From Chlamydiota bacterium (GTDB lineage Bacteria; Auribacterota; JACPWU01), in the NCBI GenBank assembly GCA_016196885.1, contig JACPWU010000054.1:16230-48229 (forward strand): 32,000 bases of DNA, read 5' to 3'. A program made the position numbers and the translations under genes. The notes beneath the pieces are model-generated. The model was not told the origin of the DNA. It ran no database searches and saw only the letters and a program-made list of their open reading frames with translations. Below are positions 2,475 to 25,369 of the stretch, in pieces. Positions within the stretch are counted from its first letter, which is position 1, and the number at the start of each line of letters is the position of its first letter.

Positions 2475-5400
2475 TTACATCGAACGCTGTGCGGCTTCGT
2501 TTCTTTGGATCATCTTATCGAGTGTTCTTAATGGAAGTTCCAGGCTGGGATGTGTCTTGAGACTAATCCCATTTTCAGGATTGTCAATCTCTGCCAGTAA
2601 TGCGGCCTTCTTTTCAGGATCTGTTACCAATCTCTCAATCAGAGCCCTATAATCTTCAGGCGATTGAGCGGCCACCAACATCTGGGCTAAAGTGACCTGG
2701 GCATTACCCAAGACCAGGCGTTTACGGCATTCTGCATTTTCACCATACTCTTGGCTCTTCTCAAGAGATCCCAAAACAATAACATGTTCTAGATCTGACA
2801 ACTCATCCGCTTGCAAAAAGTTCTCTAACGCATAGGAGGATGTTGGCCTGACCCTGTAACGATCCCTCAAATCATCCAGGTTAAATCTCTTTTTTACTGG
2901 ATCCATCTCGCCCTCGTGAGAGACAACGAAGGTCACATAAACCTCTTTAGGCAGTCTTTGCAAAATTTCGAGAAGCTCTAGGCCATCTTGTTCCATCACG
3001 AGACGCACATCGATTAAAATGTGAAAATTTTCTTTCGAGCTGATACCCTTCATAAATGGATCCTTCTTGACAATGCTTGCTTTTACGTTCGCGATGTCTT
3101 GGACCCACGCCGCTTGCCTTCCGTCCACAATCAGGCCAGCCAAATCATCGGTGAGCTTAGCTGCTGCGGCAGAATCCATGCCCTTTGAGCGAATGCGAGC
3201 GTTTAAAGCTCCTCCCACAACTTCAAGAATACGACGGACGCTCCCACCTCCTTGTAAATAACGCGAACGATATTCTGGATCGTCCAGGAACTGATTTAGA
3301 TCAAACGAACGACTCGGGCGATTTCGTTTTCCTGTTGTGCCTCTTCTCTGAGAAGAAGATTTCTTCCCTTCAGATCTTGGAAGCGCGGGGACAGGTAAAT
3401 CAAAAACAAACTGAGCACTCGTCCACTCGTTCATCGTGATCCAATACTCAGCAAAGGAACTGCGGGTGGTTCCCAGATGGATGGGCTTGGATGCTGCCGG
3501 TGCGTCTCCCAAAGAGAGAAGCGTCCACAAATCTGCCGGTCTTTTTTCCCAAAATTTCAAGCGTTCTCGTCTGTTTTCTCTTCTGAACCGTTTCAGGGCT
3601 TCGTGAGGTCTCTCATTCAGAGCTAAAGAGGCTTCTCCCGAACTCAAAGGGTCTCGCGCAAGCAAGTTTTGCGCCATCAAATCGTAATAAACACCCCATG
3701 AATCAGGCCTGGAAAATCTGGCTCCCAAGATAGTCTCTACTTCTAGCTCTTGACGCACTTGGGCCTCTGTCGGATTTTCTGAAGGAGATTTCAAGAGAGA
3801 GATGAGATTGGGTCTGTCTTCGGGTGATTGAAGGAGGGCGATTAAAATCGCGAGACGTGTATAAGGCTCCTCTGGTCTAAGAGAGCCGCTTTTGATTTGT
3901 TCTTGGACTGCCTGAGAAAGCTTTTGTGAATAAAATCTTCTTACGAGGTTTTGATAAAGATCATCCTCCCCATGAGTGGTCCCATATAAATCCATGGCCA
4001 CGACAAGCCCCGCAGAAATCAAAACACTGGATTTGGGTGAGAAAGAAGCACTCAGCGTTTCGCTACTGGTCTCCGTTATTCTATAGCGAGGATGAAATAA
4101 TCTATGGGTATCTCCATCCATCCTATCGAAGGTTGAAAGAATTTTTTTAATCATTTTTTGAGCTTCTTGAAATGAAATCTTCTCCAAACGCTGACGCTGG
4201 GCGATCGTCAAGAGACTTAAGCCCAAGTCTTCTGAGGATATCTCAAGACCCACTCGCAGACCCGTCTCATTGAAGGAGGCATCAAACCAGGCTTTAAACT
4301 GCTCCCACCCCTTATCATATTCTTTGTTGCAATAAGCGACCTCTTTTGGAGAGAGTGGAGCGGGTGTTTCAACGTGGTCAGTGGGTGCAGGGACAGGGGC
4401 TGCTTGTTCACTCTGCGCTGCTGGTGCTGTTGCTTCCTCGCGTGGTACAGCAGGAGGTGAAACCGCTGGGGCAGCAGGGACAGGGGGGGGTTCTGCAGGA
4501 GCTGCAGGTACAGGAACAGAAGGTAATACTGAACCTGTTGTTCCTACCCCTGCTGGACTGGGATCTAATAGACGTCTGAGACCTAACCCTCTTGCGTCTT
4601 TATGTTCTCCTGTCCAAAATCTATTCCAGAACTGATCAGGTGTTGTGAATGCTTGTTGTGCACTGAAGAGCGCATCTGAGAGAGCCATGAACGTCCATAA
4701 GGGATCAGAAGGGGCGTATCCATTTCTTTTGAGGCGATCAAGCACCTCATCCCCTGCGAAACGTAATGCCAGGGCACTGTCTTGTGGCTTTGTCGCAAGC
4801 CAAGGGGTGGCTATTTGTTGATCGTACTCATCCCACCGAGCTTCGAGTCCGCTGAGTCTGAGAAGAAGATCTATTTCCAACTCTTGGCGCTGGACATCGT
4901 TTGGAGGGTTTGCTAGAGGGGGCCTCAATTGTGTAATCAGACCTAGGTCGAACTCGTCTGCTTGAAGAACAGCCAACAAAATGCAAAGACGTCCATAAGG
5001 CTCTTCGCCGAGATGGGGATTTGTTTTGAGTAACTCTAATGTAGCTGTGTGAAAGTCCATTGAATGAAACAGTTCTTTAAGAGCTTGATAAGTAGGATCT
5101 TTTGCATAACCTGGATCATTTTCCCTGAGAAACTCCATGGCAACGACAAGTCCATAAGCGGCTAAGCCATTGGACCTGACTGTAGCAAGAGCTCCTTCTT
5201 GTTTCACCCCTTCTATTACCATCGCAGTGGTACCTTTTTCTGCTGTCATGGTGTACACATCGTACAAAAGGCCGTTAGGGGCTTTTTCACTGAAGCTTAA
5301 ATCGTCAACGATCCCCTGAATCATTTCTTTAGCTTCTTCTAAAGAAATGGCAAGTGTAGAATTGAGACTGGCTGGTTCCACAGAAAGAGCGTAAGCTTGT

Positions 5401-8400
5401 GTAATGGCTACAAGGTCTAAGCCAAGCGTCCCGGGCTTTACTGGATTACCTGCGTTGGTGACATGGGTTACAGGATCGCGTGTAGTTTTAATAGATTGGA
5501 TAACAGTTTCCCATCTTTTAGGAAGCTCAGTTCTAAAGAAGGCCAAATTCCCTTCGTTGAGGGTAACGCCCTGCGAAGTGGATTTTTTCTCAGGCTTTGG
5601 GCCTATTTCGACCCTTGCCCCTGGGGTTGTCCCTCGATCGGCTCTTTTTAGTTCGATAGCATGAGGTACAAGGGTCAAGTTAGCCGACCCTGTCCAGGCG
5701 GGACGAACTGTCAAAGGGTCATACGCGTCCAGGTTGCCGGCACCGATCTCGATGCTTGCCCTTCCGAGCCGAGGATGAACCCGAGAGTAACGCACGGACG
5801 CAGTCCCACGAAAGCGACCTCTTGAGGAGGCATCGCCGCCGACCGAAAGAAGCCATTCTCCTCCTAGTCCTACGAGGGTGGCATTGGATTCGAAAAAGAC
5901 GCGCACGCCTTGGGAAGGAGAAAAGGAATTTGTCAACCGGCCATGTTCTCCTGGAGATGAAATGGTGGCGACAGTGTCCCAAGAAAATAGATCAACTACA
6001 GTACCTGCTTTCAAAGCCCAGGAAGCAAGAGGGCCTCTACTAGGTGAGTAATCCGCCATATTCAAATAAAGCCGAATGTCGGTGAGGGGTTCACCTACAG
6101 CGTTCAAGATTAAGGTATCTCCACTTTGAGTCCCCTCTAAATAATACCCCCCGCCTCCATAAAGTTCATCTAGAAAACCTCTTTGAAAGGCTGTGTCGGG
6201 ATTTCCTGAATGGGCTGCCCACTGCTGAACAGCGGTTTGCAAAAGGGGATCCGGTAAAAAAGCAGTTTTCAAGTGAAACGTTATAGGTCCCCCTATTAGT
6301 TGAGCATGCAATGCGAGTGTGCTGGGGGGAAGAGGCGAACCGTAGACACGAAGAGGATTGACCGGTTGGTAAAATACGGCTGCGATAGGATCCAGACGGA
6401 ACCAAGCGCCATTGATAATGGGATTCAGTCTAAACTCCGCCCCTCCTGAAGGGCGAATCATCCATGTTCCATCAGGGGTGGCCAATGCTTGGATCCCGAG
6501 CCTTATCTTGGCTCGCCCAAAGGATCGAAGGCCATACACATAACCCATGTAAAGGGGATTGTTTTTATATAATTCCCAAAGGGTCAAGTCTTGTGCTCTG
6601 AGATAGTTAGGATCGGCAAAGGCTTCCACTAAATCGGGGTCTACATAGGTATTGATCCGACCTCCTCCGCCAAGAAAGACCCAGTTTCCGTAGTTTGCTG
6701 ATAAGTGGCCTGAATCTACCCCCAAGGTTCCGTATTGGAAGAAGGCAGAGGGGGTTATCTCTCTTGGTATTTCGGGGGCTGAAGAGACTGCAGGAGTAAG
6801 AGGCACTTCTGAAGCGGGTGGTGGTGTCACAGGTTCTGCTCCTTGAGCCAGGGCTAAATGGGACATGAAAAGCAGGGTCAGAGCAAGGACTGCTCGAGAG
6901 AATCTCGGCATGCGTTTTAGAAAACGAGAAGTTAAAGGAAGAATAGAAACGAGGGCAACAGGAATTGCAAAAATAGAATAGGAAGAATTAAAAGCAAGTA
7001 AAGATAAAGTAGCAAAGCCCAAAATACTGAAAAATGAAAATTTCAAAAATCTGAAATTCCAAAACTGAGTTCCCACTGGGCTTCCGTAACTGCCTCCTCT
7101 TGAGGATTCGCTCTTAGGTTTGGCTGATGAATCTTCAGCTTTGAGAGGGGCTTCGTCTGGGATTACATCAGCGGTGAGATTATCATAGACCACTGAACCA
7201 CTGTCATAAGAACTCAAGAAACCTATTTGGTAAGGCCTATAGCCCGCAGGTGTTTGTACAATCTGTGTTGATTTTAATTCATCATCTACATAAAAACGTA
7301 CGGTATTGTTACCTTGATCGAGAGGATCCGGAACAATCTCCAACCTTACCTGATACGCAACATTGTATTGTAAATCCGATGGAACACCTTCATCAGGACC
7401 TCCTGAGTCTTCCACAGCGTAGTGTGTCGGATCAGCATAGAGATTGACATATTTCAAATTTGATACATTGGAAGGATCGGCATATACGACGACAAACGCA
7501 CTCTGATTCGCGTTGTTGAAGGTAACTTGATATTCAAATTGAAAAGAACTATCTAGATCAATGAATCCTAAATCATTTCGATTCATTGCCGCGGAATATC
7601 CGACTGTTGAAGAGTCTCCATCTTCTGTGACTGTAAGTGTACCGTCTGATGGAATGGACCAAGTAGTATTTCCATTATTACCGTTTTCATCATAGATCAC
7701 TTCCCATCCTCCCCCCAATAAATCATCGAATGATTCATAGCCGTTAAAATCTTCTGAGTAAAAATGGGTGTCTGGGCCAGGAGTTGGGGTTACTTCAGTA
7801 GGCGTCGGAGTAACTTCAGGCGTTCCAGCAGGTGTTGGAGAAGCTTCAGGCGTTCCAGCGGGTGTTGGAGAAACTTCAGGCGTTCCAGCAGGCGTCGGAG
7901 AAGGTTCAGGCGTTGGTGTGACAACCACAGGCGTAGGGCTTGGAGCTTCACTAGGTTCAGGTGTCTGTGTAGCTGAAGGTGTAGGAGCTTCAGTAGAAGT
8001 AGGCGTCGGAGTAACCTCAGGTGTGGGACTTTCTCCAGCAGGTGTAGGAGAAACCCCGGGCGTCGGAGAAACCTCAGGAGTCACAGCAGGCGTTGGAGAA
8101 ACCTCTATCGGTGTGGGGGATCCACTGATGGGCAGGGGTGTAGCTCCTGGAAACTCTGTTTCAAAGCAACCCATGAAAGAAGCAAGACTCATTGCAATTA
8201 AGAGAACGATGCTCGCGGGGAGCACTCTTGAGAGCACACGCAAAAAACTCCCTCCTTGAGAAGGTGTAGAAGGTACTTCCTTCGGGAAGAGTCGATCGAG
8301 CACGTTCTCTAAGGGTTCCGTATATCCATCACGTATTAATACTCGGGTCAGATATCTCTCGGTTAAAGCACGTCGGCTTTCATCGTTATCGTTCAACAAT

Positions 8401-10367
8401 GCAAGAATTTCGTCAGCATTCTCAAACTCAGTGATGGTTAGAAATTGATTGAGATCAAGTGTGGGAAGTACGCCTTCGGCGGAAGCGGGCTCTAATTCTC
8501 GGCTTTCCAATTCGCGAAGCACAGACTCAAGGTCGCTGACGGCTTCAATGGCTGCTTGAGTATTCCCCAACCCCTGCTGCCAATCTGCAAAAAGTTTAGC
8601 GTGATTCCAGTTTGAGGCCTCAATCATTTCTCGGCCCATTTGTCCTGTCGTTTGCATCCCCAGCAAATGAAGGCGTGCGATCTTGAGTAATGTGGGCAAA
8701 GGTGCTGTTTTCAAGGCGCCTGGGGCACCTCCTAATAAGCCAAACAGTTCCTCCATTTTTCTAAAATAAAGACTTCGATCATCGGGATGACTCACGCGAG
8801 GGCTGATGATCCAGTAGCCGATTTTGGCTTCTTTGAGCAATTCTTTGAGGCCGGAAGTATGAAAACCTCCAGCAACCAAGGCCGCATGGTTGATTTTTTT
8901 CTCAGAGATCAGAGCGAGAGATTTATCCAGAAAGATGTGATCGCGTTCAAGCACTTTTTCGTAGAATTTTGCGGCCGTTTTGAAAACATCCCCAAAATCA
9001 GGGGATTCGAAAGCCGTTGTTCGTTGCTCGTCCTTCGTCGCTCGTAGATACAAAGTTTTGAGTTTGGCAACAAATTCTGTGACGAAACGGTTTCCGGTAC
9101 GATCTACGGACGACGAGTGACGATAGACGGCTTCAATATCTTCCCGCTTTCCTTCGAGTCGCGCAACCCGGTCGAGAATTGCATAATTTTTCTGAATCTC
9201 TATCAATTCTCTTTCCTGATCATTTTGGATGAGGGCTTGAGTTAATTCTTCTTCGGCCTCTTTCATTTCACCGTCTAATTTTTCCCATGAAAGATTTTTC
9301 ATGAGATTCATTTGGTCCATGAGAAGTTTGAGATTTTGAAAGGTCGAACTTCCATTTTCCATACGATTCATGTATTGGCTCAAATAAAGATAATGTTCTT
9401 GATCGCTCACTTGCCCCAGGCGATATTCCAGGACATGCCTTAAAAGGCTTGTGGATTCTTCCTTGGGGAGTTTGGCTTCAAGAATCTCTAGGAAGTGAAG
9501 GTATTCCTTTTCCAGGGCTTCTGGATTCACTTGCGATTCTAATTGAACCAGATCGGCATAATTTTTTAGAGTTGGATAAGGGGTGGAGACATCCTTGCCG
9601 AATGTTTCCTTATACTGCTGGGATAATTCTTTAAAATAGGTCTGAATATCTGTTCTCGTCTCTCGGTACTGCTTTACTTTGCTCATCCAGTCGTACATTC
9701 CTTTAGAGAAAACCTTTTTCTCAAGTGCTTCAATCATCTCTTTCGAGGTTTGCCAGGCCTGTTCCTGAAGGGTGTTTTCCTCCAAAGATTTTCCCATGGC
9801 GTCAATATTGTCTACATAAACGGATAAATCTTCGATTCCGAGACCCTGTGCCTTGTCAGGTCCTTCGGTGATGAGAAAGGATTCCACGGCGTCAATATCG
9901 CTTCTCTGAAGAAATTTCTCTTGAGCGATTTGAAGCGCCTTTTTGTCTGGAAAGGTATCGAAAAAGGACATGTCCATGCGGCCTTCAGCGGCCTCTGAGA
10001 AAACATAAAAGAGGGAATTGGGATTGGAAGATGGATGCGCACGTGAAACTGTTTTTAAAATGCCTCGTATATGGGCTTGTGCTTCTGGATTGCAGTGAAT
10101 ATCTTCAATAATGAACAATACGGGACGATCCTGAAAAACATTTTTTTCGACCACTTCTCCAAAATCACTCGGAATTTTTAAATGATCCAAAGCTGCACCG
10201 AACTCTTCTGAAGGCCTCTGAAGATTCCAATCGCTCCTTTGAATGGGGGAGGATTTGGACACAGTCTGGGCTATGTTTGCATCTTGTGCAAAGGTGAAAC
10301 TACAATCGTGGGTGATAAAGGAAAGACAGACAACAAGGCTGATGATTTGACGCGCAATTTTGAACAT
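2475..10367 (-). CDS. giant (2,630 aa) multidomain secreted/membrane-anchored protein of unknown function
   Basis: Single open frame with SD GAGGAGGG ~7 nt upstream of the ATG at 10367 and a TAA stop at 2475-2477. Order of segments: N-terminal signal peptide (MFKIARQIISLVVCLSFI..FAQD); ~700-aa domain; TM ending ..LASFMGC; Pro/Thr linker; ~230-aa beta-sandwich-like domain; hydrophobic cluster containing a second signal-peptide-like segment; ~450-aa beta-rich region; two paralogous helical modules split by a Pro/Ala linker; ~300-aa C-terminal region. Confidence 0.85.
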   Translation of the reverse strand: MFKIARQIISLVVCLSFITHDCSFTFAQDANIAQTVSKSSPIQRSDWNLQRPSEEFGAALDHLKIPSDFGEVVEKNVFQDRPVLFIIEDIHCNPEAQAHIRGILKTVSRAHPSSNPNSLFYVFSEAAEGRMDMSFFDTFPDKKALQIAQEKFLQRSDIDAVESFLITEGPDKAQGLGIEDLSVYVDNIDAMGKSLEENTLQEQAWQTSKEMIEALEKKVFSKGMYDWMSKVKQYRETRTDIQTYFKELSQQYKETFGKDVSTPYPTLKNYADLVQLESQVNPEALEKEYLHFLEILEAKLPKEESTSLLRHVLEYRLGQVSDQEHYLYLSQYMNRMENGSSTFQNLKLLMDQMNLMKNLSWEKLDGEMKEAEEELTQALIQNDQERELIEIQKNYAILDRVARLEGKREDIEAVYRHSSSVDRTGNRFVTEFVAKLKTLYLRATKDEQRTTAFESPDFGDVFKTAAKFYEKVLERDHIFLDKSLALISEKKINHAALVAGGFHTSGLKELLKEAKIGYWIISPRVSHPDDRSLYFRKMEELFGLLGGAPGALKTAPLPTLLKIARLHLLGMQTTGQMGREMIEASNWNHAKLFADWQQGLGNTQAAIEAVSDLESVLRELESRELEPASAEGVLPTLDLNQFLTITEFENADEILALLNDNDESRRALTERYLTRVLIRDGYTEPLENVLDRLFPKEVPSTPSQGGSFLRVLSRVLPASIVLLIAMSLASFMGCFETEFPGATPLPISGSPTPIEVSPTPAVTPEVSPTPGVSPTPAGESPTPEVTPTPTSTEAPTPSATQTPEPSEAPSPTPVVVTPTPEPSPTPAGTPEVSPTPAGTPEASPTPAGTPEVTPTPTEVTPTPGPDTHFYSEDFNGYESFDDLLGGGWEVIYDENGNNGNTTWSIPSDGTLTVTEDGDSSTVGYSAAMNRNDLGFIDLDSSFQFEYQVTFNNANQSAFVVVYADPSNVSNLKYVNLYADPTHYAVEDSGGPDEGVPSDLQYNVAYQVRLEIVPDPLDQGNNTVRFYVDDELKSTQIVQTPAGYRPYQIGFLSSYDSGSVVYDNLTADVIPDEAPLKAEDSSAKPKSESSRGGSYGSPVGTQFWNFRFLKFSFFSILGFATLSLLAFNSSYSIFAIPVALVSILPLTSRFLKRMPRFSRAVLALTLLFMSHLALAQGAEPVTPPPASEVPLTPAVSSAPEIPREITPSAFFQYGTLGVDSGHLSANYGNWVFLGGGGRINTYVDPDLVEAFADPNYLRAQDLTLWELYKNNPLYMGYVYGLRSFGRAKIRLGIQALATPDGTWMIRPSGGAEFRLNPIINGAWFRLDPIAAVFYQPVNPLRVYGSPLPPSTLALHAQLIGGPITFHLKTAFLPDPLLQTAVQQWAAHSGNPDTAFQRGFLDELYGGGGYYLEGTQSGDTLILNAVGEPLTDIRLYLNMADYSPSRGPLASWALKAGTVVDLFSWDTVATISSPGEHGRLTNSFSPSQGVRVFFESNATLVGLGGEWLLSVGGDASSRGRFRGTASVRYSRVHPRLGRASIEIGAGNLDAYDPLTVRPAWTGSANLTLVPHAIELKRADRGTTPGARVEIGPKPEKKSTSQGVTLNEGNLAFFRTELPKRWETVIQSIKTTRDPVTHVTNAGNPVKPGTLGLDLVAITQAYALSVEPASLNSTLAISLEEAKEMIQGIVDDLSFSEKAPNGLLYDVYTMTAEKGTTAMVIEGVKQEGALATVRSNGLAAYGLVVAMEFLRENDPGYAKDPTYQALKELFHSMDFHTATLELLKTNPHLGEEPYGRLCILLAVLQADEFDLGLITQLRPPLANPPNDVQRQELEIDLLLRLSGLEARWDEYDQQIATPWLATKPQDSALALRFAGDEVLDRLKRNGYAPSDPLWTFMALSDALFSAQQAFTTPDQFWNRFWTGEHKDARGLGLRRLLDPSPAGVGTTGSVLPSVPVPAAPAEPPPVPAAPAVSPPAVPREEATAPAAQSEQAAPVPAPTDHVETPAPLSPKEVAYCNKEYDKGWEQFKAWFDASFNETGLRVGLEISSEDLGLSLLTIAQRQRLEKISFQEAQKMIKKILSTFDRMDGDTHRLFHPRYRITETSSETLSASFSPKSSVLISAGLVVAMDLYGTTHGEDDLYQNLVRRFYSQKLSQAVQEQIKSGSLRPEEPYTRLAILIALLQSPEDRPNLISLLKSPSENPTEAQVRQELEVETILGARFSRPDSWGVYYDLMAQNLLARDPLSSGEASLALNERPHEALKRFRRENRRERLKFWEKRPADLWTLLSLGDAPAASKPIHLGTTRSSFAEYWITMNEWTSAQFVFDLPVPALPRSEGKKSSSQRRGTTGKRNRPSRSFDLNQFLDDPEYRSRYLQGGGSVRRILEVVGGALNARIRSKGMDSAAAAKLTDDLAGLIVDGRQAAWVQDIANVKASIVKKDPFMKGISSKENFHILIDVRLVMEQDGLELLEILQRLPKEVYVTFVVSHEGEMDPVKKRFNLDDLRDRYRVRPTSSYALENFLQADELSDLEHVIVLGSLEKSQEYGENAECRKRLVLGNAQVTLAQMLVAAQSPEDYRALIERLVTDPEKKAALLAEIDNPENGISLKTHPSLELPLRTLDKMIQRNEAAQRSM
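7819..7908. repeat. 3 x 30-bp tandem repeat inside the Pro/Thr linker of the giant gene
   Basis: The units at 7819-7848, 7849-7878 and 7879-7908 (GGCGTTCCAGCAGGTGTTGGAGAAGCTTCA and variants) differ at a few positions. On the minus strand they encode (E/T)(A/V)SPTPAGTP-type decapeptides. Partial units flank the array. Confidence 0.9.
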
Positions 10368-10566
10368 ATTCCCTCCTCAGGGTAACAATTTATAACGAAA
10401 ATGGGTGCGGAGAAAAAGACACTCCGGGCTAGAAATAGCCTACAGACGGAAGACACTTCTTGGCCTAAAAAGGTCAAAATAAATGAGGTTCAAAGAGTGA
10501 GGGATAGGGAACCTCTTCCTGCTAAAGGGGTTTTGGAACGAGGATTTTGAGTAAAAAGAGGTTATT

Positions 10567-10952: not shown

Positions 10953-12168
10953 TCACTTCTTTGTTGTTGCACTCGCAGTCGTGGCCGTATCTACGTTTGT
11001 ATTTGTTGAAGAAGTTTTTTGTTTCTGAGCTGAAGCAACTGATAACGTATTTGCACTGACCCACTTAATATTTTTTAAATTGGGATTGTATTGTAGAGGA
11101 GCAGGTTTCAGCAAAGTCGCTGAAGATGTTTTGGTAGAACTTGTCTTTCCTGTAGAAACGGCTTGTTGAGTCGTTTTGCTGTTGGTTTGAGTTTTTTTAG
11201 TTTGTGGTGTTTTTGAAGAACTGGTTTTTGAAGATTCTTGAGAGGTTATTTTCTGTGCGGATGCATTTTGAGTAGAGACTGCGTGCCAATCTACATTTTG
11301 ATAGGCAGGTTTTAAATTGAGAGCGGGTTTTTTTGCCTGTGGAGGTTGAATAACAGGAATCTTTGTTTGTCCAGAAGCAGGTGTTTCAGTGCTATGGGGT
11401 GCAGATGAAGAAGATTGTGAGGACATCTGGTTTAGAGCATTCCAATCCACAGAATTTGAGTGTGTTTGAGAAGATGAACTTTGAGATGTATTGCTGGGGT
11501 GCTGGCGCCGTTTGCGTTCTAGAATTTTCAGGAGGGCGAGAAGAAGAGGGGGCAGCGGGCTCTCGTCTGGGGGCAGAAGAGGGCTGTTCATCTCGAGCTG
11601 GACGATTCTCCCAATCAGAACGGGCGGTTGTTCGAGCCTGAAGAATGGGATGCAATCTAAATGTTTCCCAGACATCGGCAGAGGTGTTGATTGCCCCTAA
11701 GTAACTGTCATTTCCAATCCCCGCGCGGACATATCTGCCCAAGGCGATCGATCGAAACGCCACTTTGTCATCTCCCAGTTGGCGCAGTTCAAAAGTTTGT
11801 TCTTCTGCGATGTTTGAACTTAAAGCCATTACATCAAAATTAGGGATGTTGTAGCTGATGGAAGCGTACTTATTGCTTTTGACGGATTGAAGAGCGACTT
11901 TGCGATTCCCCAAATCAACCAAGCGAAATGCCTCCCAAATTTGAAGGTGGGAACTGGCGGCGCCGAGCCTTGATTTTTCTCCGAGGCCTGCTCGGACGTA
12001 TTTCCCAGTTTTAATGGATTGAAAAGCAACTTTCCCGTCTCCCAGCATGTGGATTTTAAAACCCTCCCAAAGATGAAGATGAGGACTGACGGCACCCAAA
12101 TAGCACCCGATGAAATCAATGCCCGCTCGCACATAGCGTCCATTGGAGACAGATTGTATGCCGATCAT
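10953..12168 (-). CDS. beta-trefoil (fascin-like) repeat protein with Ser/Thr/Gln-rich tail, interrupted by a +1 frame change near 11496-11499
   Basis: ORF 11392-12168 has four ~44-aa repeats of the pattern G(D)xKVAxQS..xGxYVRAG....LGA.S....WExF. Its Pro/Ser-rich linker overlaps ORF 10953-11675 in another frame. An xDW motif occurs in the first frame (SDWEN) and then in the second (VDWNA, VDWHA, IKWVS) at irregular ~55-75-aa intervals. Skipping one C in GCA-CCC-C-AGC joins the two frames. Confidence 0.55.
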
Positions 12169-12312: not shown

Positions 12313-12828
12313 CTAGTCCGTGCTAAAATGTTTTGACAACCAATCTACACCGATACGAACATCTACTTTGACGACAGGGGTGAGGGATAAATCAATTTTG
12401 TAGCGAGGTTTTTCAAGAATAAATCCATAATTTTTTTCTAAGGATTCTCCATTCCCGGAAATAGCAGGCAAATCACTTTTTAGAGGTTTAGGCTGTGTGC
12501 TTGAGAAAGAAAGCTCTTCCTTTTTTAAATTTTGAGAGCCTAAAAAAGGTTGATAATCAAGGCCCACCGTGCCGTCTCCGTCAAATCGGATGCCAAATTG
12601 GGCAAAGCCATTCAAGGCGCCAAAACTAAATTGTGTGTTTGTCGCTGAAGGAGGGATCGGAATGATAGGGCCTTCCCCATGTCCGAGGGGAGGAGGAAAA
12701 TTCTGATTGCAATCAATTCCATAATAATGGAAGTCAATCACGGGAGGAATGTCGCTCCAAAGGGCTCGTAATTTCATTCCAAAGCCAAACTTGGCTTCCA
12801 AAACGGCTTCATTGCCGTCAAAAACCAT
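12313..12828 (-). CDS. hypothetical beta-rich protein (start uncertain: ATG 12828 or TTG 12870)
   Basis: The open frame ends at TAG 12313-12315. ATG 12828 overlaps the upstream gene's stop (ATGGTTTTTGA), which is typical of translational coupling. No signal peptide and no motif I recognise. Confidence 0.5.
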   Translation of the reverse strand: MVFDGNEAVLEAKFGFGMKLRALWSDIPPVIDFHYYGIDCNQNFPPPLGHGEGPIIPIPPSATNTQFSFGALNGFAQFGIRFDGDGTVGLDYQPFLGSQNLKKEELSFSSTQPKPLKSDLPAISGNGESLEKNYGFILEKPRYKIDLSLTPVVKVDVRIGVDWLSKHFSTD

Positions 12829-13468
12829 GTCTGAGGGTAAACCCACTTTCCTGAATGCTGGGCTTTTCAACGGGCAATCGTTCTTCCGCTCCTTGATCGG
12901 CGTTCTGAGAATTTAAGGCATCCAGATTTTTCGTCGGAAAGGGGAATTGCACTTTTCCGTTTATTTCTGGGAAAGGGGCTTTGGGAATATCATTTTGAAT
13001 ATAGTCTCGAAAGCCCTGTAAACTTGAGGGTTTTAGAGAGGCGATCGTGATATTGTTTGCGGCACGTGTGGGTGCAAACTGATTTTTAAAGAAATCAGAT
13101 CCTTGTGATAATGTTTGAGGATTGGCAACGACAAAACGAGTGCTTTGGGTCAGGACAAAGGCATCCGACAATTCTAAAACCTCGCTGGTGAATTCGGGTC
13201 TTTCAACAAGGGCCTGTCCAGACGTGTTTCTCTGAAGCTGGGCCTGAAGTTCATTTTGCTCTCTAAAAGTTTTTTGGGCAATGTTTCCCAATGTGAGCGT
13301 TTTATTGGCAAAGGAAGAAAGCGTTCCCTTGCTTAAAATATTTGGACTGGCAAATCGCACCTCTTCATCCAACGCAGGAGTTGCGTGGATCCATGGGGTG
13401 TTCCAGAAGAGATTAAAAGAGGCCGTGAGAATCACCAGAAAAGTTGATATTCTAAGGCGAGATTTCAT
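12818..13468 (-). CDS. secreted hypothetical protein
   Basis: The internal ATG at 13468 is preceded by AGGAGA at a spacing of ~6 nt. The N-terminus MKSRLRISTFLVILTASFNLFW..IHA is signal-peptide-like. I do not recognise the rest of the protein. Confidence 0.6.
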   Translation of the reverse strand: MKSRLRISTFLVILTASFNLFWNTPWIHATPALDEEVRFASPNILSKGTLSSFANKTLTLGNIAQKTFREQNELQAQLQRNTSGQALVERPEFTSEVLELSDAFVLTQSTRFVVANPQTLSQGSDFFKNQFAPTRAANNITIASLKPSSLQGFRDYIQNDIPKAPFPEINGKVQFPFPTKNLDALNSQNADQGAEERLPVEKPSIQESGFTLRHGF

Positions 13469-13576
13469 ATTCTTCTCCTGGGCGTAATCTACATTAGAAT
13501 ATAGCACAATTTTTTGAGAGTGGATGGGATGGCAAATAATAGTGTTGACCCCCAATGAGTTAGAGAAAAGGTATTC

Positions 13577-14920
13577 ATGAATGTCATTTTTTTATCTCGC
13601 CTACAATTTGGACTGACCATTTGTTTTCACTACATTTTTCCACCCCTGAGTGTGGGGCTGGGCCTTCTTCTGGTCTTAATGGAAGGAATGTATCTTTGGA
13701 CGAAAAATCCGCTTTATCAGAAGATGACGCAATTCTGGGTGCGCATTTTTGGCCTCACCTTCGCGATCGGAGTGGCCTCTGGCATTGTGATGGAATTTCA
13801 ATTTGGGACCAACTGGTCTTCTTATTCGCGTTATGTCGGGGACGTTTTTGGAAGTGCGCTAGCTGCAGAGGGAATTTTCGCTTTTTTTCTCGAGTCTGGA
13901 TTTTTAGCCATTCTTTTATTTGGATGGAATAAAGTCGGACCCAAGACTCATTTTTTCTCGACGCTTATGGTTTCGCTTGGGTCCATGTTCAGTGCGGTTT
14001 GGATTGTGGTCGCCAATTCCTGGATGCAAACGCCTGCTGGTTTCCACCTGGTGGAAAGGGGAGGACAGGTTCGTGCCGAGATTACAAATTTTTGGAAATT
14101 GTTCTTCAATCCTTCCTCCATGGGAAGATTGAGCCATGTGATCACCGGATGTTGGCAGGCCGGCGCTTGGTTCGTTCTAAGCGTCAGCGCCTATTACTTA
14201 TTGAAAAGAAAGCACGAAGATTTTGCAAAGGCCTCGATTAAAATTACATTGGTGCTAGCCTTCATTTCCTCCATTTTACAAATACTTTCAGGTCACGCCA
14301 ACGCGGTGATCGTAAGCCGTTATCAGCCGGCGAAGCTCGCGGCCATGGAGGGGCATTATCCTGTGAATGCGCCAGCCAATTTTAATTTATGGGGTTGGGT
14401 GGATGGAAAAGAAGAGAGGGTTCGAGGAGGGTTGGCCTTGCCAGGTTTTTTAAGCTTTCTGGTTTCCGGAAAATTTGACACCCCTATCAAAGGGCTCAAC
14501 GCTTTTCCTCCCCAAGATCGTCCTCCCGTTCAAGCTACTTTTCAGTGTTATCATGGAATGTTGCTCATTGGGATTGCTCTTTTTCTGTTTAGTCTTTGGG
14601 GTGTGATTCTCTGGAGGAAAGGAAAACTTTTTCAAAGTCGCTGGCTTTTAAAACTTTTTGTTTTGTCCGTTTTAGGCCCTCAACTGGCCAATCAATTAGG
14701 CTGGATGACGGCCGAGGTGGGAAGACAGCCTTGGATTGTCTATGGGCTTCTTCGAACCTCTGAAGGGGTCTCGCCCATTCTTCGTTCAGGACAAGTTCTT
14801 TTCTCCATCATTTTATTTTCTCTCGTGTATCTTTTATTATTTGTTTTATTCATTTATTTGTTGGATCAAAAAATTCGAAAAGGTCCTGAGAGTCATCAAG
14901 AAACGTTGCATCGGGCGTAA
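13577..14920 (+). CDS. cydA: cytochrome bd-type quinol oxidase subunit I
   Basis: 447 aa and polytopic. It starts with the conserved N-terminus [23 protein letters not shown]. It also has ..EFQFGTNW.., [20 protein letters not shown], and a short Q-loop. Confidence 0.93.
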
Positions 14921-14971
14921 TGCGGAAACGTCAACAGAGGTTGCTGCTAGGCTGTTCGAAAATGTTGTTTT

Positions 14972-15004
14972 CCCCTCCCTATTATGGGAGGGGTTAGGGG
15001 AGGG
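14972..15004. repeat. G/C-tract hairpin repeat in the cydA-cydB spacer
   Basis: CCCCTCCC-tattat-GGGAGGGG followed by TTAGGGGAGGG. Related GGAGGGGTTAG-type hairpins occur at 17568-17645. Confidence 0.7.
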
Positions 15005-15037
15005 AATGTTGCAATGACTAAAGCAAGGTGAGTCGCT

Positions 15038-16060
15038 ATGCATTTAGACCTTCATATCATCTGGTTTATTTTGGTCGGAATGCTCATGACGGGTTACGCC
15101 CTGTTAGATGGCTTTGACCTGGGCGTAGGGGCTTTGCATCTTTGGACCCGCACGGATCAAAATCGGCGTATCATGCTCAATGCGATTGGTCCTGTGTGGG
15201 ATGGAAATGAAGTCTGGTTGGTAACGGGGGGAGGTGCTTTGTTTGCGGCTTTTCCAGAAGTTTACGCAACTGTTTTTTCAGGTTTTTACGAAGCGTTTAT
15301 GTTGCTTCTTTTTGCTCTGATTTTTAGAGCGGTCGCCATTGAATTTAGAAGCAAGCGTCCCGGAGAAAAATGGCACCTTTTGTGGGATGTCAGTTTTAGC
15401 GTGTCGAGTATTCTTTCAAGCTTTCTAATCGGAGTGGCGCTTGGAAATTTAGCGTGGGGAATTCCCCTTTCGGATCACAAAGAATTTATGGGAAATTTTT
15501 TCACGCTCCTTCATCCCTACAGCATTTTAGTCGGAATTCTTACAGTCGCTCTTTTTATGATGCATGGGGCCATTTACATTGTTCTTAAGACAGAAGGAGC
15601 ACTTCATGAACAAGCCCGAGGCTGGGTTAAAAATACCATGATTTTCTTTATTGTTATGTTTGCAATGACGACGCTGGCCACGCTTCTTTATGCCCCTCAA
15701 ATGTCGGATGTCATTCGCACTCACCCTGTTTTATTTCTGGTTCCTCTGCTCAACATTCTTTTCATCGCGAACATCCCTCGCGAGATCTCAAAAGGAAGAG
15801 ACTTCCGAGCCTTTCTTTCTTCATGCTTTACCGTCCTGACCCTCATGGCCCTTTTTGCCATAGATGTATTCCCCAATCTGGTTTATTCCAATCCCCATCC
15901 TGAAAACAGCCTCACCCTTTACAATGCGGCGTCCTCTCCTGAAACCCTTCATATGATGCTCATCATTGCTGCTCTCGGGATTCCCTTGGTGCTGGCCTAC
16001 ACCGTCAGCATTTACTGGATTTTTAGAGGGAAGGTGAAATTGGAAGAGACGAGTTATTAA
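15038..16060 (+). CDS. cydB: cytochrome bd-type quinol oxidase subunit II
   Basis: 340 aa. The motifs LDGFDLGVG, GPVWDGNEVWL and the polytopic profile are present. SD AAGGTGAG lies upstream of the ATG at 15038. Confidence 0.92.
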   Translation: MHLDLHIIWFILVGMLMTGYALLDGFDLGVGALHLWTRTDQNRRIMLNAIGPVWDGNEVWLVTGGGALFAAFPEVYATVFSGFYEAFMLLLFALIFRAVAIEFRSKRPGEKWHLLWDVSFSVSSILSSFLIGVALGNLAWGIPLSDHKEFMGNFFTLLHPYSILVGILTVALFMMHGAIYIVLKTEGALHEQARGWVKNTMIFFIVMFAMTTLATLLYAPQMSDVIRTHPVLFLVPLLNILFIANIPREISKGRDFRAFLSSCFTVLTLMALFAIDVFPNLVYSNPHPENSLTLYNAASSPETLHMMLIIAALGIPLVLAYTVSIYWIFRGKVKLEETSY

Positions 16061-16102
16061 TCCATTGTCATTCTTTTCCGTGAATGCTACATTCCTTCCA
16101 CC

Positions 16103-16837
16103 ATGAGTATTCAAGCGGCTCAAAGGCCCCCAGTAGAAATTCCAGACATTCGAGAGCAGGGTGCTCCCAAAGAGGGAACGCCTCAAGTGCTTGACCGCCG
16201 GCTTTTTATGCAGCTTCAGGTCTTTACGGGTTGTCCCCATCCACAACCTCTGGTAGAAGCAGTCAAAAAATCTGGGCTCGAATGTGTTTTGTATTTAGAT
16301 ATAAATGATGCTCAGGGGATTGGCCTCTTGACTTTGACAGAAGATCCCTCTGTCTTGACCCAAACAGCGAGGCAACTTTTACTCTCAGAGCCTTTTGTTC
16401 GGCTCACGCCAATGCGAGAATTCACGATGCTCGGCCGCACTTACTCGAGCGGTCATGAGCAAAATTTAGAGGATTGGCTTTTAGCCAAATCCCGCCGTAA
16501 CCTTTCGAATCCAACGCTCTCCTGGGCCGTCTGGTATCCTTTAAAGCGAAAACCAGAATTTGAACTGCTCTCGAAAGACGAGCAGCGGGCCATTCTCATG
16601 GAGCATGCCAAATTGGGCATGAGTTATGGGACGGGTGGTTTAGCTCATGATGTTCGGCTGGCTTGTCATGGTCTAGATCCTAACAACAATGAATTTGTCA
16701 TTGGGATTGTTTCCTCAAAACTGCATTCCATTTCTCGCCTGGTCGAAGACATGCGTAAAACTCAACAAACGGCCAAATACATCGAATCCATGGGCCCCTT
16801 TTTTGTTGGCCAAGTTTTGTTCTCCTCTGTAAAATAG
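16103..16837 (+). CDS. chlorite dismutase family protein (Cld/HemQ-like haem enzyme)
   Basis: 244 aa. It reads W..WYPLKRKPEFELLSKDEQRAILMEHAKLG (proximal-His context) ...DVRLACHGLDPNNNEFVIGI...MRKT....YIES.GPFFVG. This is the typical C-terminal ferredoxin-like half of PF06778-type proteins. Confidence 0.75.
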   Translation: MSIQAAQRPPVEIPDIREQGAPKEGTPQVLDRRLFMQLQVFTGCPHPQPLVEAVKKSGLECVLYLDINDAQGIGLLTLTEDPSVLTQTARQLLLSEPFVRLTPMREFTMLGRTYSSGHEQNLEDWLLAKSRRNLSNPTLSWAVWYPLKRKPEFELLSKDEQRAILMEHAKLGMSYGTGGLAHDVRLACHGLDPNNNEFVIGIVSSKLHSISRLVEDMRKTQQTAKYIESMGPFFVGQVLFSSVK

Positions 16838-22319: not shown

Positions 22320-22415
22320 TTAAAGTGGAAAATAAGGACGGGAAAAGAAATTTTTTATTTACTAACCGTTGAAAATGAGGCATAATTTACGGTGATATGA
22401 AGATTGAGAGGGATC

Positions 22416-23558
22416 ATGAAAAACTATCAGCGGCTTTTTTATCCACCTAAATCAAGTTTCTTTCTGTTGGGTGTGAGAGGGGTTGGTAAGAGTACCCTGA
22501 TAAAGCACGTGTTTAAAAATGCCAAAATAATCAATCTCCTAGATGAGGCTCTTTATCAACTTTATCTTTCAAAGCCTCAATCTTTTGTGGAGGATTTGTC
22601 ACTGGTCAAGCCTGGGGATTGGGTTGTCGTAGATGAAGTTCAGCGTTTACCTCAGCTTCTGAATGAAGTACACCGTTTTATTGAAGAGAAGAAAATAAAA
22701 TTTGCGCTTTTAGGCTCAAGCGCAAGAAAATTGAGACGCGCAGGTGTGAATCTTTTAGGCGGAAGAGCTTTGCAAAAATGGATGCATCCCTTTCTTTTGG
22801 AAGAGTTAGGCGATGATTTTTCATTGGATAAAGTGTTTAGGAATGGATCAATCCCCCTCATTTGGACTTCCGTCAATCCCAAAGAACAACTTTTGGCGTA
22901 CATGCAACTCTATTTGAAAGAAGAGATTCAAGCCGAAGCCATTGTGAGAAATTTACCAGGGTTTGCGCGCTTTTTACCGGTCGCAGCTCTTTTTCATTCG
23001 CAGGTCATTAATGTCGAAGGTCTGGGCAGAGATTGTGGCGTTGCCCGATCTACGGTTGAAGGATACTTACAGATTTTAGAAGATACGCTGATTGCATTTC
23101 AAGTTCCTGCTTATGAGAATAAATTAAGGGTTCGTCAAAGAGCTCATCCAAAGCTTTACTGGTGCGATTCGGGTATTGTTAGGGCTGCAAAAAGACAATT
23201 AGAGGGGCTTGCGATTGAGGAAAAAGGTGCTTTATTTGAAGGGTTTATCGCTCAGACGTTGAAAGCCTATCGAGAGCTTGGACGGCTTGATTGTGATCAA
23301 ATTTCTTATTGGTCGGCGGGTAAGAATTCTGTAGAGGTTGATTTTGTGATTGAGAGAGGGAGAGAACTCATTGGCATCGAAGCCAAATCAGGCACGGATC
23401 CCGAAAAGAAATGGTTTGCCGGTTTATCAGCCTTAGAAGACAGTGTGAAATTAAAACGTTCCATCCTTGTTTATACAGGCAAAAGAAAATACAAACATGA
23501 TTCTGGTGTAGAAGTGTTGCCTCTACAAGATTTCATGAAAGAAGTAGAACGGTTTTAA
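22416..23558 (+). CDS. AAA_14/DUF4143 ATPase (intact copy)
   Basis: Walker A is LLGVRGVGKST and Walker B is VVVDEVQRLP. The DUF4143 region is FARFLPVAALFHSQVINVEGLGRDCGVARSTVEGYLQILEDTLI. The C-terminus has ..EVDFVIE....IGIEAKSG. GAGAGGG precedes the ATG at 22416. Confidence 0.85.
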   Translation: MKNYQRLFYPPKSSFFLLGVRGVGKSTLIKHVFKNAKIINLLDEALYQLYLSKPQSFVEDLSLVKPGDWVVVDEVQRLPQLLNEVHRFIEEKKIKFALLGSSARKLRRAGVNLLGGRALQKWMHPFLLEELGDDFSLDKVFRNGSIPLIWTSVNPKEQLLAYMQLYLKEEIQAEAIVRNLPGFARFLPVAALFHSQVINVEGLGRDCGVARSTVEGYLQILEDTLIAFQVPAYENKLRVRQRAHPKLYWCDSGIVRAAKRQLEGLAIEEKGALFEGFIAQTLKAYRELGRLDCDQISYWSAGKNSVEVDFVIERGRELIGIEAKSGTDPEKKWFAGLSALEDSVKLKRSILVYTGKRKYKHDSGVEVLPLQDFMKEVERF

Positions 23559-24098: not shown

Positions 24099-24800
24099 AT
24101 GAATAATACTATCAAGCGTGTCATTAAAGCTTTGGAAGGCAAAATGGAGAGTTTCCCTCTAGGCGGTGGAACCGCTCTATCTCTTTTTTATTTTCAACAC
24201 CGTCTTTCTTACGACTTGGATTTCTTTACCCAAACATTTTCTCGAAAAGAGGTAGAGAAAATAATAACAGAGCTTTCATCAACTTTAAAAGCGGATGTTC
24301 AATTAACGGCTGAAGTCTCAAAAAGAGAAAGAGCGCGGATCTTGGTTTACAATCTAATATTGGACAAAGAGAATTCCTTAAAAATTGATTTTATTGAGGA
24401 TCTTTTTAAAAGGATTGGAACAGTCAATGTCTTTAACGGAATCCCGGTGCTCTCACTAGAAGATATTTACTTAAGAAAAATTTATGCGGCTTGTGGCGTT
24501 TCTGAAATGCTTGACGAGGCAGGACGAAAAATATTTTTGGGAGGTAGGCAAGAAGTGAAAGATTTTTTTGATCTCTTCTTTTTATCAAAAACATTTATGA
24601 GTCTTTCCAAATTTGCCAGCGATTTTTGCAGCTCTTCTGAAAAGGAAAGCATCATTGCCTGGTATAGAAAATACAATTGCCCTCAGATGAAGATGGGACT
24701 CTCTGAAATTCAAACAGATAAAAGAGTGAGCTATCAGGAAATGGAACGCCATTTTAAGGATGAGGTAGAAGCGTTGGTTCGTAAAGAGGTTGAAGGATGA
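24099..24800 (+). CDS. nucleotidyltransferase, AbiEii/AbiGii (DUF1814) toxin family
   Basis: 233 aa. FPLGGGTALSLFYFQHRLSYDLDFF is the hGG(T/S)x(9-13)DhDh pol-beta-fold NTase motif as found in AbiEii. A further acidic motif is KIDFIED. Confidence 0.7.
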   Translation: MNNTIKRVIKALEGKMESFPLGGGTALSLFYFQHRLSYDLDFFTQTFSRKEVEKIITELSSTLKADVQLTAEVSKRERARILVYNLILDKENSLKIDFIEDLFKRIGTVNVFNGIPVLSLEDIYLRKIYAACGVSEMLDEAGRKIFLGGRQEVKDFFDLFFLSKTFMSLSKFASDFCSSSEKESIIAWYRKYNCPQMKMGLSEIQTDKRVSYQEMERHFKDEVEALVRKEVEG

Positions 24801-25369
24801 AAAATTTATTTTGGGATCGAAAAACGAGTTTAAATAAAGTTAAAAACATTCTCAAAAATCCGGACCATCCTCAATTTATTGAATATGCCGCTCTCGTTCT
24901 TTCTAGAACCAACGAGATCAAAAAGATCTTCTCAGAATTTCTCGATAAAAAAGTCTTTTGCATCCATTGGCGAAAAATCAAAAGCAGAATGCGAAAGAAT
25001 AAATGGGGTGATACCAGAATAGACTTATGGGATGAGGTTTATAAAGTTTTGTCCAAGGATTTAGGGATCAAGGAGTCCAGCAAGGAAGCAGTTCCTCGCC
25101 ACTCCAAGGCTTATGAAATAGGTCAGCGGATCGAAACAGAGCGAGACAAAAGGGGCTGGAATCAGAAAGAGCTGGCTCAGAGAGCAGGTGTCTCTCAGCA
25201 ACTTATTTCTTTCATGGAAAGAGGCTCTCTTAATTTTTCGTTTGAGACTTTGATGAAAGTGACATCAGCATTGGGTCTTCAGTTTGAGATCATCCCGAAG
25301 AAGCATCGTAAGACTGGAAATGTAACGGGCCTTCTCTCGGGTGAAGGAGGTAAGACTCAAACGAGGTGA
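24797..25369 (+). CDS. XRE-family helix-turn-helix protein with unknown ~110-aa N-terminal domain
   Basis: The start overlaps the NTase stop (ATGA). The C-terminal half GWNQKELAQRAGVSQQLISFMERGSLNFSFETLMKVTSALGL is a canonical HTH_3/XRE motif. Confidence 0.7.
   Translation: MKNLFWDRKTSLNKVKNILKNPDHPQFIEYAALVLSRTNEIKKIFSEFLDKKVFCIHWRKIKSRMRKNKWGDTRIDLWDEVYKVLSKDLGIKESSKEAVPRHSKAYEIGQRIETERDKRGWNQKELAQRAGVSQQLISFMERGSLNFSFETLMKVTSALGLQFEIIPKKHRKTGNVTGLLSGEGGKTQTR

Follow-up and report, generated by a model that had tools for sequence, protein, structure and literature searches.

We analysed a stretch of 32,000 nucleotides (the window, in what follows) from contig JACPWU010000054.1 of the Chlamydiota bacterium assembly GCA_016196885.1, positions 16,230 to 48,229. 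Its minus strand carries a 7.9-kb open reading frame (ORF) that is a genuine single gene for a mosaic protein of 2,630 residues. This protein, the query below, is one orphan-bodied member that exposes a very large, unnamed and uncharacterised family of giant proteins, in which an exported head is followed by a variable middle part and by a tail at the extreme C-terminus. Because the head family is huge and the tail motif family-wide, the query exemplifies a recurrent architecture and is no isolated fusion. The reading that we favour, with a probability of about 0.6, is that of a genuine mosaic gene of this family with a Sec signal peptide, a Tiki-like head and the tail, whose product would combine an exported hydrolase head, a transmembrane (TM) anchor and lineage-specific cargo. 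Direct evidence covers the ORF, its place in the family, the fold class, the conserved residues, the tail motif and an internal duplication, while topology, catalysis and substrate are inferred. A preliminary description of the same DNA had noticed the ORF; it overlooked that giant proteins in enormous number form a family defined by the N-terminal domain (N-domain), and that the last residues carry a motif common to that family.

A single gene for a mosaic protein

Residue numbers refer here to the 2,630-residue protein and nucleotide positions to the window. The gene and its ribosome-binding site are placed as follows.

2475..10367, minus strand: complete ORF, 2,630 codons plus stop (ORF list, translation, codon score, identical gene in an independent assembly)
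10371..10378, minus strand: Shine-Dalgarno site GAGGAGGG, three bases 5' of the ATG

The preliminary description had proposed a single frame of 2,630 codons, on a strand that it left unstated, preceded by a strong Shine-Dalgarno site. Both points hold: the start codon is ATG and GAGGAGGG stands three bases before it. All the peptides that it quoted are found in the translation, namely IIEDIHCNPEAQ (residues 86-97), VAGGFHTSG (498-506), LASFMGC (730-736) and FYSEDFNGY (at about 861). The protein was deposited at NCBI as HYS08_04965, from a metagenome-assembled genome (MAG) labelled 'Chlamydiae bacterium'.

A long frame in a MAG could be a chimera, or hide a stop or a frameshift under a sequencing error, as the preliminary description was careful to consider, and a short tandem repeat could have been collapsed during assembly. 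The evidence speaks against such an artefact. Codon-usage log-odds, trained on eleven other genes in the window and computed over 200-codon windows, ranked the annotated frame first in 17 of 17 positions along the ORF, and we therefore see no sign of a hidden frame change. GC content varies between 0.40 and 0.56 without an abrupt break, and an 8,177-nt contig of an independent Logan assembly (run SRR12113387) carries the identical 2,630-residue gene. Frame-consistent codons, smooth composition and independent recovery together establish the ORF and make assembly chimerism unlikely. The relatives, moreover, are of equal length, and the two hallmarks of the family, head and tail motif, sit at opposite ends of the same ORF; we leave the artefact a very slim chance. 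The sole tandem repeat of the ORF is a 30-nt unit present 4.0 times (86% matches) at 7796-7914. It encodes TPEVSPTPAG-type repeats within a Pro/Thr-rich linker, and its copy number could vary or be collapsed in assemblies. A scan for promoters and terminators gave nothing above chance level.

A very large family of giant proteins

Searching 5.8 billion proteins brought up 27 relatives, all of them giant (1,871-4,548 residues), from Chlamydiae-labelled MAGs, Omnitrophica and Elusimicrobia. Six are Chlamydiae-labelled paralogues with 37-42% identity to the query, one of them from the query's own MAG. Similarity is restricted to the N-terminus of the query, extending over residues 1 to about 800 with the close paralogues and over about 60-550 with the others; in blastp, E-values are 1e-178 against paralogue P0002 and 7e-28 to 5e-37 against the Omnitrophica proteins P0008-P0010. 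A profile of the N-domain (family alignment A1), run exhaustively against 1.84 billion cluster representatives, matched 10,421 of these at E<=1e-3 and 7,397 at E<=1e-30; the query scores 556 bits against the family profile (E 6e-162), being itself one of its rows. Among the best 150 of the 10,421 matches, every protein (150/150) has the domain beginning no more than about 150 residues from its N-terminus, and protein lengths run from 519 to 7,623 residues. In species-representative genomes, a scan confirmed 372 loci, which belong with few exceptions to Omnitrophota. Scanning genome contigs with Chlamydiae-type patterns uncovered no relative, and the metagenome contig scan returned matches to the Pro/Thr linker only.

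The bodies behind the head are diverse and often enzymatic: isocitrate lyase with malate synthase, Maf, phosphoglucomutase, protein kinases, glutamate dehydrogenase, glycosyltransferases and asparaginase were found in relatives. As a case in point, paralogue P0003 (3,811 residues, from a Chlamydiae MAG) has in one chain a signal peptide, the same head, Pfam domains of isocitrate lyase and malate synthase, which we take to be the two glyoxylate-cycle enzymes, and a tail ending in ETSM. Three other paralogues (P0002, P0004 and P0005) contain a multi-TM module of about 140 residues (ILETILFGLPLL...) twice per protein, with 35-66% identity among copies, which the query lacks; modules have therefore been duplicated and shuffled within the Chlamydiae-type subfamily.

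A further giant ORF adjoins the head-bearing gene in 56 of 80 Omnitrophota loci, and tandem pairs are frequent: in L019, L041, L050 and L067, two head-bearing giant genes, 2.8-3.9 thousand residues each, lie head-to-tail about 200-1,200 bp apart. The same 80 loci comprise six head-only ORFs of 511-559 residues. At one locus (L074, 9965-20624), a gene for a 532-residue head is followed 4 bases later by a gene for 3,018 residues with its own signal peptide and tail motif; at another (L038, 9992-17706), the gene is split into three consecutive ORFs corresponding to head, middle and tail. Apart from further giant genes, no conserved accessory gene was found near the query, its paralogues or the 80 Omnitrophota loci.

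The head, a divergent Tiki-like domain

The N-terminal part of the query comprises the following features.

10287..10367, minus strand: Sec-type signal peptide, residues 1-27 (K3/R6 n-region, 11-residue h-region IISLVVCLSFI, predicted cleavage between TFA and QD); from hydropathy and flanking charges, cleavage being inferred
8598..10235, minus strand: family-defining N-domain, residues 45-590 (common to 27 giant proteins; profile search; AlphaFold2 model, pLDDT 83)
9798..10184, minus strand: N-terminal half of the Tiki-like alpha/beta core, residues 62-190, with E88-D89-x-H91, Q97, E125, G177 and E179 (invariant columns, core-only model, Foldseek)
8997..9797, minus strand: all-helical insertion of about 270 residues within the core, residues 191-457 (DSSP of the model)
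8733..8996, minus strand: C-terminal half of the core, residues 458-545, with F468-Y, R475-D, G500-G-F-H503, P523 and Y534 (conservation, core-only model, Foldseek; sub-threshold PF04187/PF01963 matches fall here)
8244..8597, minus strand: helical extension, residues 591-708, common only to Chlamydiae-type paralogues (blastp to P0002-P0005 reaches residues ~727-806)
8163..8234, minus strand: predicted TM helix, residues 712-735, lipobox-like FMGC at its end (Kyte-Doolittle 2.12, flanking charges)

The cleavage-type site of the signal peptide, a small residue, any residue and Ala before Gln, is kept in the paralogues. Modelled with AlphaFold2 from alignment A1, residues 45-600 (predicted local distance difference test, pLDDT, 83; predicted template-modelling score, pTM, 0.79) display six core strands forming a parallel-strand core, flanking helices and a helical insertion of some 270 residues. 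As this insertion swamped the Foldseek search with the full N-domain model, the core was folded on its own (residues 62-190 joined to 458-545, alignment A5); pLDDT rose to 88.9 and pTM to 0.86, with strand order unchanged. Among 350,542 PDB chains, the best match of this core-only model is HopBA1 (5t09; E 0.011, probability 0.99, TM-score 0.40), followed by ChaN (2g5g; E 0.063, probability 0.82, TM-score 0.42), with the erythromycin esterase EreC (6xcs) at rank 16. HopBA1, ChaN and the Ere-family protein Bcr135 are counted as TIKI-superfamily folds in the paper describing the structure of RRSP (PMC6254334). When taken from the full model, the helical insertion (residues 191-457) had non-significant matches (E 1-5), recurrently to alpha-pore-forming toxins of the ClyA/AhlB/YaxA/MakA type and to chemoreceptor bundles.

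Conservation points the same way. Ten residues (D89, H91, Q97, E125, G177, R475, G500, G501, H503 and P523) are at least 98% conserved in 170 family sequences. In RRSP, the set of two His and two Glu with a basic residue consists of E3900, H3902, E3930, R4001 and H4030 (PMC6254334). The head set D89-x-H91, E125, R475 and H503 reproduces the superfamily order of [acid]-x-His, Glu, Arg, His, with E88 adjoining D89 in the query, and R475 is separated from H503 by 28 residues vs 29 between R4001 and H4030. Family consensus sequences approach two profiles of the clan, PF04187 (ChaN, 'Tiki superfamily'; E 0.005-0.095, 13-17 bits vs a cutoff of 27.7) and PF01963 (TraB/PrgY/GumN; E 0.16-0.22, about 12 bits vs a cutoff of 26.8). 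All these sub-threshold matches cover the R-D...GGFH stretch and align it to the corresponding C-terminal part of the profile.

The case is not without difficulties, and several observations weigh against it. With the full N-domain model, Foldseek found nothing significant, helical-bundle matches dominating and HopBA1 appearing at rank 20. The core-only model is an artificial deletion construct, its Foldseek E-values are 0.01-0.06 with TM-scores of about 0.4, and no Tiki-clan match reaches a curated threshold. The query itself matches neither PF04187, PF01963 nor PF05139, nor any NCBIfam model. A comparison by hhalign of the core profile with the single sequence of Escherichia coli YbaP (TraB family), a protein without PDB relative, was negative. 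Furthermore, the whole family has Asp in place of Glu as its first acid, and ChaN and the PMT C2 domain show that such a fold can be non-catalytic.

On balance, the head is supported as a divergent domain of the Tiki/ChaN/erythromycin-esterase superfamily, with a moderate structural match between model and known folds. The preliminary description had ventured a loose resemblance of its first segment to ChaN, Tiki and erythromycin esterases. This guess is borne out, because the invariant residues mirror the superfamily site of two His, two acids and Arg, with HopBA1 and ChaN the top structural matches and the sub-threshold profile matches alongside. The head is also probably catalytic, since the D-x-H / E / R / H set is near-invariant over 170 divergent sequences.

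The C-terminal tail

2478..3248, minus strand: C-terminal domain, residues 2374-2630, ending ...IQRNEAAQRSM-COOH, the family tail motif (weak profile similarity to paralogues)

At the other end of the chain, 117 of 168 family proteins terminate in [SAQNMH][LAVM]-COOH, vs 42 of 292 neighbouring ORFs; those members that lack the ending may have been cut short where their contig stops. The sequence logo of the tail displays a conserved amphipathic helix, E-A-[YLI]-[KR]-A-A-R-x-[AV]-L-x-[SA]-[AL], before the C-terminal end. Chlamydiae-type paralogues finish in ...ETSM, ...RLSM, ...QLYM and ...QKNM and the query in ...AAQRSM, its last residues I-Q-R-N-E-A-A-Q-R-S-M fitting the family pattern [YLI]-x(5)-[AV]-L-x-[SA]-[LAVM]-COOH. 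A hidden Markov model (HMM) built from the terminal ~290 residues of Omnitrophota proteins matches 69 of the 168 family proteins, among them short complete members (1,045-1,482 residues) made up of signal peptide, head, middle part and C-terminal domain, without a TM helix.

We claim the tail motif for the query and not the whole domain, because the Omnitrophota HMM matches neither the query nor its paralogues and profile comparisons are suggestive only. The query-type domain aligns with that of Omnitrophota at E 0.047 over 19 columns in hhalign, and with the paralogues' domains weakly (HMM E 0.005, hhalign E 0.057). Homology of the C-terminal domains of query, paralogues and Omnitrophota is suggested by these scores and falls short of statistical significance.

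Orphan modules and a proposed topology

Between head and tail, the chain is made of these parts.

7794..8150, minus strand: Pro/Thr-rich linker, residues 740-858, including the 30-nt x4 repeat (composition, repeat)
7143..7793, minus strand: orphan globular module, residues 859-1075, the beta-sandwich-like domain of the preliminary description; predicted cytoplasmic (no Pfam/PDB match; location from topology)
6828..7055, minus strand: hydrophobic cluster, residues 1105-1180, with hairpin 1105-1126 / 1132-1148, +5 loop RFLKRMPRFSR and signal-peptide-like helix 1159-1174 ending in ALA before Q1175 (hydropathy, charges)
5457..6827, minus strand: Pro-rich spacer and orphan Gly/aromatic-rich module, residues 1181-1637, the earlier beta-rich segment; predicted extracytoplasmic (no Pfam/PDB match)
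4671..5456, minus strand: helical module A, residues 1638-1899 (paralogous to module B)
4278..4595, minus strand: Pro/Ala-rich linker, residues 1925-2030 (composition)
3501..4256, minus strand: helical module B, residues 2038-2289 (paralogous to module A)

All the segments of the preliminary description are present. Pfam and NCBIfam are blank, whether scanned with the entire protein (Pfam at E<=1) or with six segments one by one (Pfam at E<=10), in agreement with the impression that most of it resembles no family. Sequence searches of the PDB, run with the N-domain and core profiles and with three segments, returned chance matches only, and query residues past about 600 match none of the 168 family members compared. 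The middle ~1,900 residues are, by these searches, an orphan. Helical modules A and B, perceived as paralogous, are so indeed (31% identity, E 2e-21). The three signal- or TM-like segments correspond to five hydrophobic stretches in three clusters by hydropathy: residues 8-26; 712-735; and 1105-1126 / 1132-1148 / 1159-1174. By contrast, the idea of several secreted proteins fused in frame stays undemonstrated: no free-standing orthologue of the middle or C-terminal segments was found among the 5.8 billion proteins or the 168 family members, and no Shine-Dalgarno site precedes the Met of the internal signal-peptide-like segment.

The distribution of charges yields one self-consistent topology. 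RFLKRMPRFSR, a +5 loop that joins hydrophobic stretches four and five, would be cytoplasmic, and the rest can be traced back from it. The head would lie outside the inner membrane, at whose outer face TM helix 712-735 would hold it. Residues 737-1104, with the Pro/Thr linker and the orphan globular module, would be cytoplasmic and lead to the hairpin and the +5 loop; the signal-peptide-like helix ending in ALA before Q1175 would then cross, placing residues 1175-2630 outside again. This helix has no separate translation start, because no Shine-Dalgarno site is found before M1153. Two points speak against this arrangement: its basis is hydropathy and charge only, and two Arg before TM helix 712-735, together with the lipobox-like ends of the query and two paralogues (FMGC at residues 733-736 in the query, MTAC in P0002 and P0004), fit the opposite orientation. 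Given the N-terminal signal peptide, the Cys of FMGC would be at the cytoplasmic face, when the Cys of a lipoprotein sits at the extracytoplasmic end of an N-in helix.

As for function, the head would most likely be an active hydrolase, peptidase or esterase. It may process its own chain or tail, with a logic akin to MARTX autoprocessing, or attack an external substrate; lineage-specific surface or cargo functions would fall to the variable part. A bolder version makes head and tail a functional pair, the exported head recognising or trimming the tail in cis or in trans; we hold it as a speculation with the odds well against it. Were it true, the pair would define self-processing modular 'head-cargo-tail' giant proteins in more than 10,000 clusters; host-dependent bacteria (Omnitrophota and the Chlamydiae-labelled lineage) would use these proteins for the export and maturation of any cargo, entire metabolic enzymes among it; and split loci, where a separate head gene precedes the giant gene with the tail, would represent a two-component form.

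Alternative readings

The internal signal-like segment invites another interpretation, that of a bacterial polyprotein, which takes up the idea of several secreted proteins fused in frame from the preliminary description. Signal peptidase I would cut between A27 and Q28 and again between ALA and Q1175, and the Tiki-like head might also cut, the products being a membrane-anchored piece (residues 28-1174) and a free exported protein of ~1,456 residues. The segment MPRFSRAVLALTLLFMSHLALA, followed by QG, with its +5 n-region, its h-region and its A-x-A before Q, mirrors the N-terminal TFA before Q; head and tail-bearing body are separate genes at L074, each with a signal peptide; and protease-mediated cleavage has been raised for Omnitrophota giants by West-Roberts et al. 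(10.1101/2023.11.21.568195). Yet cleavage at internal signal-like helices is rare in bacteria, M1153 without an upstream Shine-Dalgarno site offers no independent translation start, and neither the 5.8 billion proteins nor the 168 family members provided a free-standing orthologue of residues 1175-2630. We find this scenario rather unlikely.

The head might also simply bind, as haem-binding ChaN does, in a non-enzymatic surface coat or adhesin with a role in attachment or envelope architecture only, as proposed for Omnitrophota giant ORFs. ChaN is indeed one of the two best structural matches, adhesion or coat roles of giant ORFs have been put forward in the literature, and surface proteins typically have Pro/Thr linkers and orphan beta-type modules. 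What makes us doubt this proposal is that the D-x-H / E / R / H set, near-invariant over 170 divergent sequences, argues for catalysis, that Pfam scans found no adhesin repeat family (Ig-like, cadherin, discoidin, dockerin or Pmp), and that many relatives contain metabolic enzymes, not adhesion domains. A further possibility is a secreted effector directed at a host or prey: after Sec export and passage of the outer membrane, the hydrophobic clusters of the protein would insert into a host membrane in the manner of Inc proteins and its Tiki-like domain would target proteins of the host, like RRSP and HopBA1. The latter two, a MARTX toxin effector and a type III effector respectively, are both TIKI folds; residues 1105-1148 form a bilobed hydrophobic pair; in TM-less relatives the signal peptide is followed by enzymes of cytoplasmic type (for example kinase, GT2/glucanotransferase and weak GHMP-kinase-like matches in P0017, P0020 and P0088); and Omnitrophota and Chlamydiae are largely host-dependent. 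Against this, no secretion-system gene lies nearby, the neighbours being housekeeping genes, no host is known, and regulators with GGDEF/EAL domains or of the sigma-54 type beside paralogues of a related MAG (HYS07), like cytochrome bd in the window, are unusual for obligate intracellular chlamydiae. An effector thus conceived seems to us quite improbable, and the exported, membrane-tethered hydrolase with variable cargo is the reading that we retain.

Genomic neighbourhood

The neighbours of the query and of two paralogues are unrelated; among them are genes for cytochrome bd, a chlorite-dismutase-like protein, GNAT, sulfate activation and DUF4143 ATPases, as well as toxin-antitoxin pairs. 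Immediately 5' of the giant gene, on the minus strand, two ORFs overlap in different frames (10953-12168); that at 11392-12168 is beta-trefoil-like (DUF7910/FRG1-like repeats), that at 10953-11675 is of low complexity, rich in Ser, Thr and Gln, and the pair may be one frameshifted gene or a pseudogene. Similarly, overlapping ORFs at 12818-13555 (with a signal-peptide-like start) and 12313-12870, without Pfam match, may represent a single frameshifted secreted protein (12313-13555, minus strand). The AAA_14/DUF4143 ATPase family occurs three times within the 32 kb (1886-2389, 22404-23558 and 29794-30735), the first copy being truncated to the C-terminal DUF4143 part; a further copy lies upstream of paralogue P0004 in the HYS07 MAG (L085, 6817-7989). 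Small genes of mobile or defence type also occur: an AbiEii toxin and its helix-turn-helix partner are found at 24099-25369, and the ORFs at 440-652, 770-970 and 980-1177 are presumably, as read from their translations, a GIY-YIG-like ORF and a BrnT/BrnA-like pair.

Genes cydA and cydB for cytochrome bd oxidase, followed by a chlorite-dismutase/HemQ-like gene, occupy 13577-16837, and GGDEF/EAL and sigma-54 regulators flank paralogues in the HYS07 MAG (L086). The chlorite-dismutase/HemQ-like function belongs, with cytochrome bd and these regulators, to a set unusual for obligate intracellular chlamydiae. The label 'Chlamydiae' may hide a free-living or deep-branching lineage of the Planctomycetes-Verrucomicrobia-Chlamydiae (PVC) group.

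Comparison with known systems

The head is best compared with the TIKI superfamily (Tiki1/2, TraB/PrgY/GumN of PF01963, ChaN of PF04187, erythromycin esterases of PF05139, HopBA1 and RRSP/PMT-C2). It has in common with these proteins a parallel beta-sheet core with flanking helices. The motifs also come in the same order: strand 1 is followed by [acid]-x-H and strand 2 by E, then come a helix bearing R-[DN] and, behind a later strand, G-x-x-H. In the proposed layout, the first 740 residues of the query consist of signal peptide, ectodomain and TM helix, as in animal Tiki and PrgY. Unlike them, its core holds a helical bundle of about 270 residues and its first acid is Asp within a Q-D-A-H motif; furthermore, the domain heads proteins of 1-7.6 thousand residues and co-occurs with a conserved C-terminal tail.

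Candidate identities among large exported proteins were considered and rejected, the query failing the defining features of MARTX toxins, Inc proteins, Pmp autotransporters and Archaeovorins. With MARTX toxins it has in common conserved ends around a variable, shuffled central array; these toxins carry a protease domain in the same chain and a TIKI-fold domain, RRSP. It differs in having no RTX or glycine-rich repeats and no cysteine protease domain (Pfam, NCBIfam), no type I secretion context, an N-terminal Sec signal, and a Tiki-like domain that is the constant head and not a variable effector. Chlamydial Inc and Pmp proteins belong to the nominal phylum of the host, and like them the query is a large exported protein or, in the bilobed pair at residues 1105-1148, reminiscent of Inc. 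It lacks Chlam_PMP repeats and an autotransporter barrel (Pfam), has a Sec and not a type III signal, displays no sequence similarity to them and is several times larger than known Inc proteins. Archaeovorins far exceed 10,000 residues, with numerous TM helices and a divergent SecA-DEAD domain (West-Roberts 2023), whereas the query has 2,630 residues, 4-5 hydrophobic helices and no SecA match in Pfam.

The giant ORFs of Omnitrophota come closest. Published accounts portray them as weakly conserved and sparsely annotated, rich in TM helices and in some cases fused to enzymes of sugar metabolism; their N-terminal regions are said to be devoid of identifiable domains except C39/S8 peptidases, and the sizes treated are above 10-20 thousand residues (more than 20 kb), up to 147 thousand (Seymour et al. 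2023, PMC10066038; 10.1101/2023.11.21.568195; 10.64898/2026.06.07.730766). Omnitrophota is the phylum of most relatives of the query, and the resemblance extends to mosaic, poorly conserved bodies, signal peptides and/or TM helices, tandem arrays and fused metabolic enzymes (phosphoglucomutase, a PEP-utilising enzyme, kinases). Differences are the size of the Tiki-like-head family, 1-7.6 thousand residues, and the Chlamydiae label of the query's host; neither a Tiki-like domain nor a conserved C-terminal tail is mentioned in the literature searched on Omnitrophota giant ORFs. Giant ORFs of Omnitrophota and of host-dependent bacteria, described as nearly without conserved parts, have had no functional handle so far. 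Thousands of proteins of 1-7.6 thousand residues are now tied together by a common exported head and a C-terminal tail. The head supplies candidate catalytic residues for mutation (H91, E125, R475 and H503), the tail is a defined peptide and a candidate substrate or ligand, and both make up a signature for finding and classifying such genes. The family now extends to a Chlamydiae-labelled MAG lineage with 6-7 paralogues, one of them fused to isocitrate lyase and malate synthase, and one may ask why enzymes of central metabolism should follow a secretion signal. To be sure, the query is best filed among giant mosaic ORFs, from which it is set apart by its Tiki-like head.

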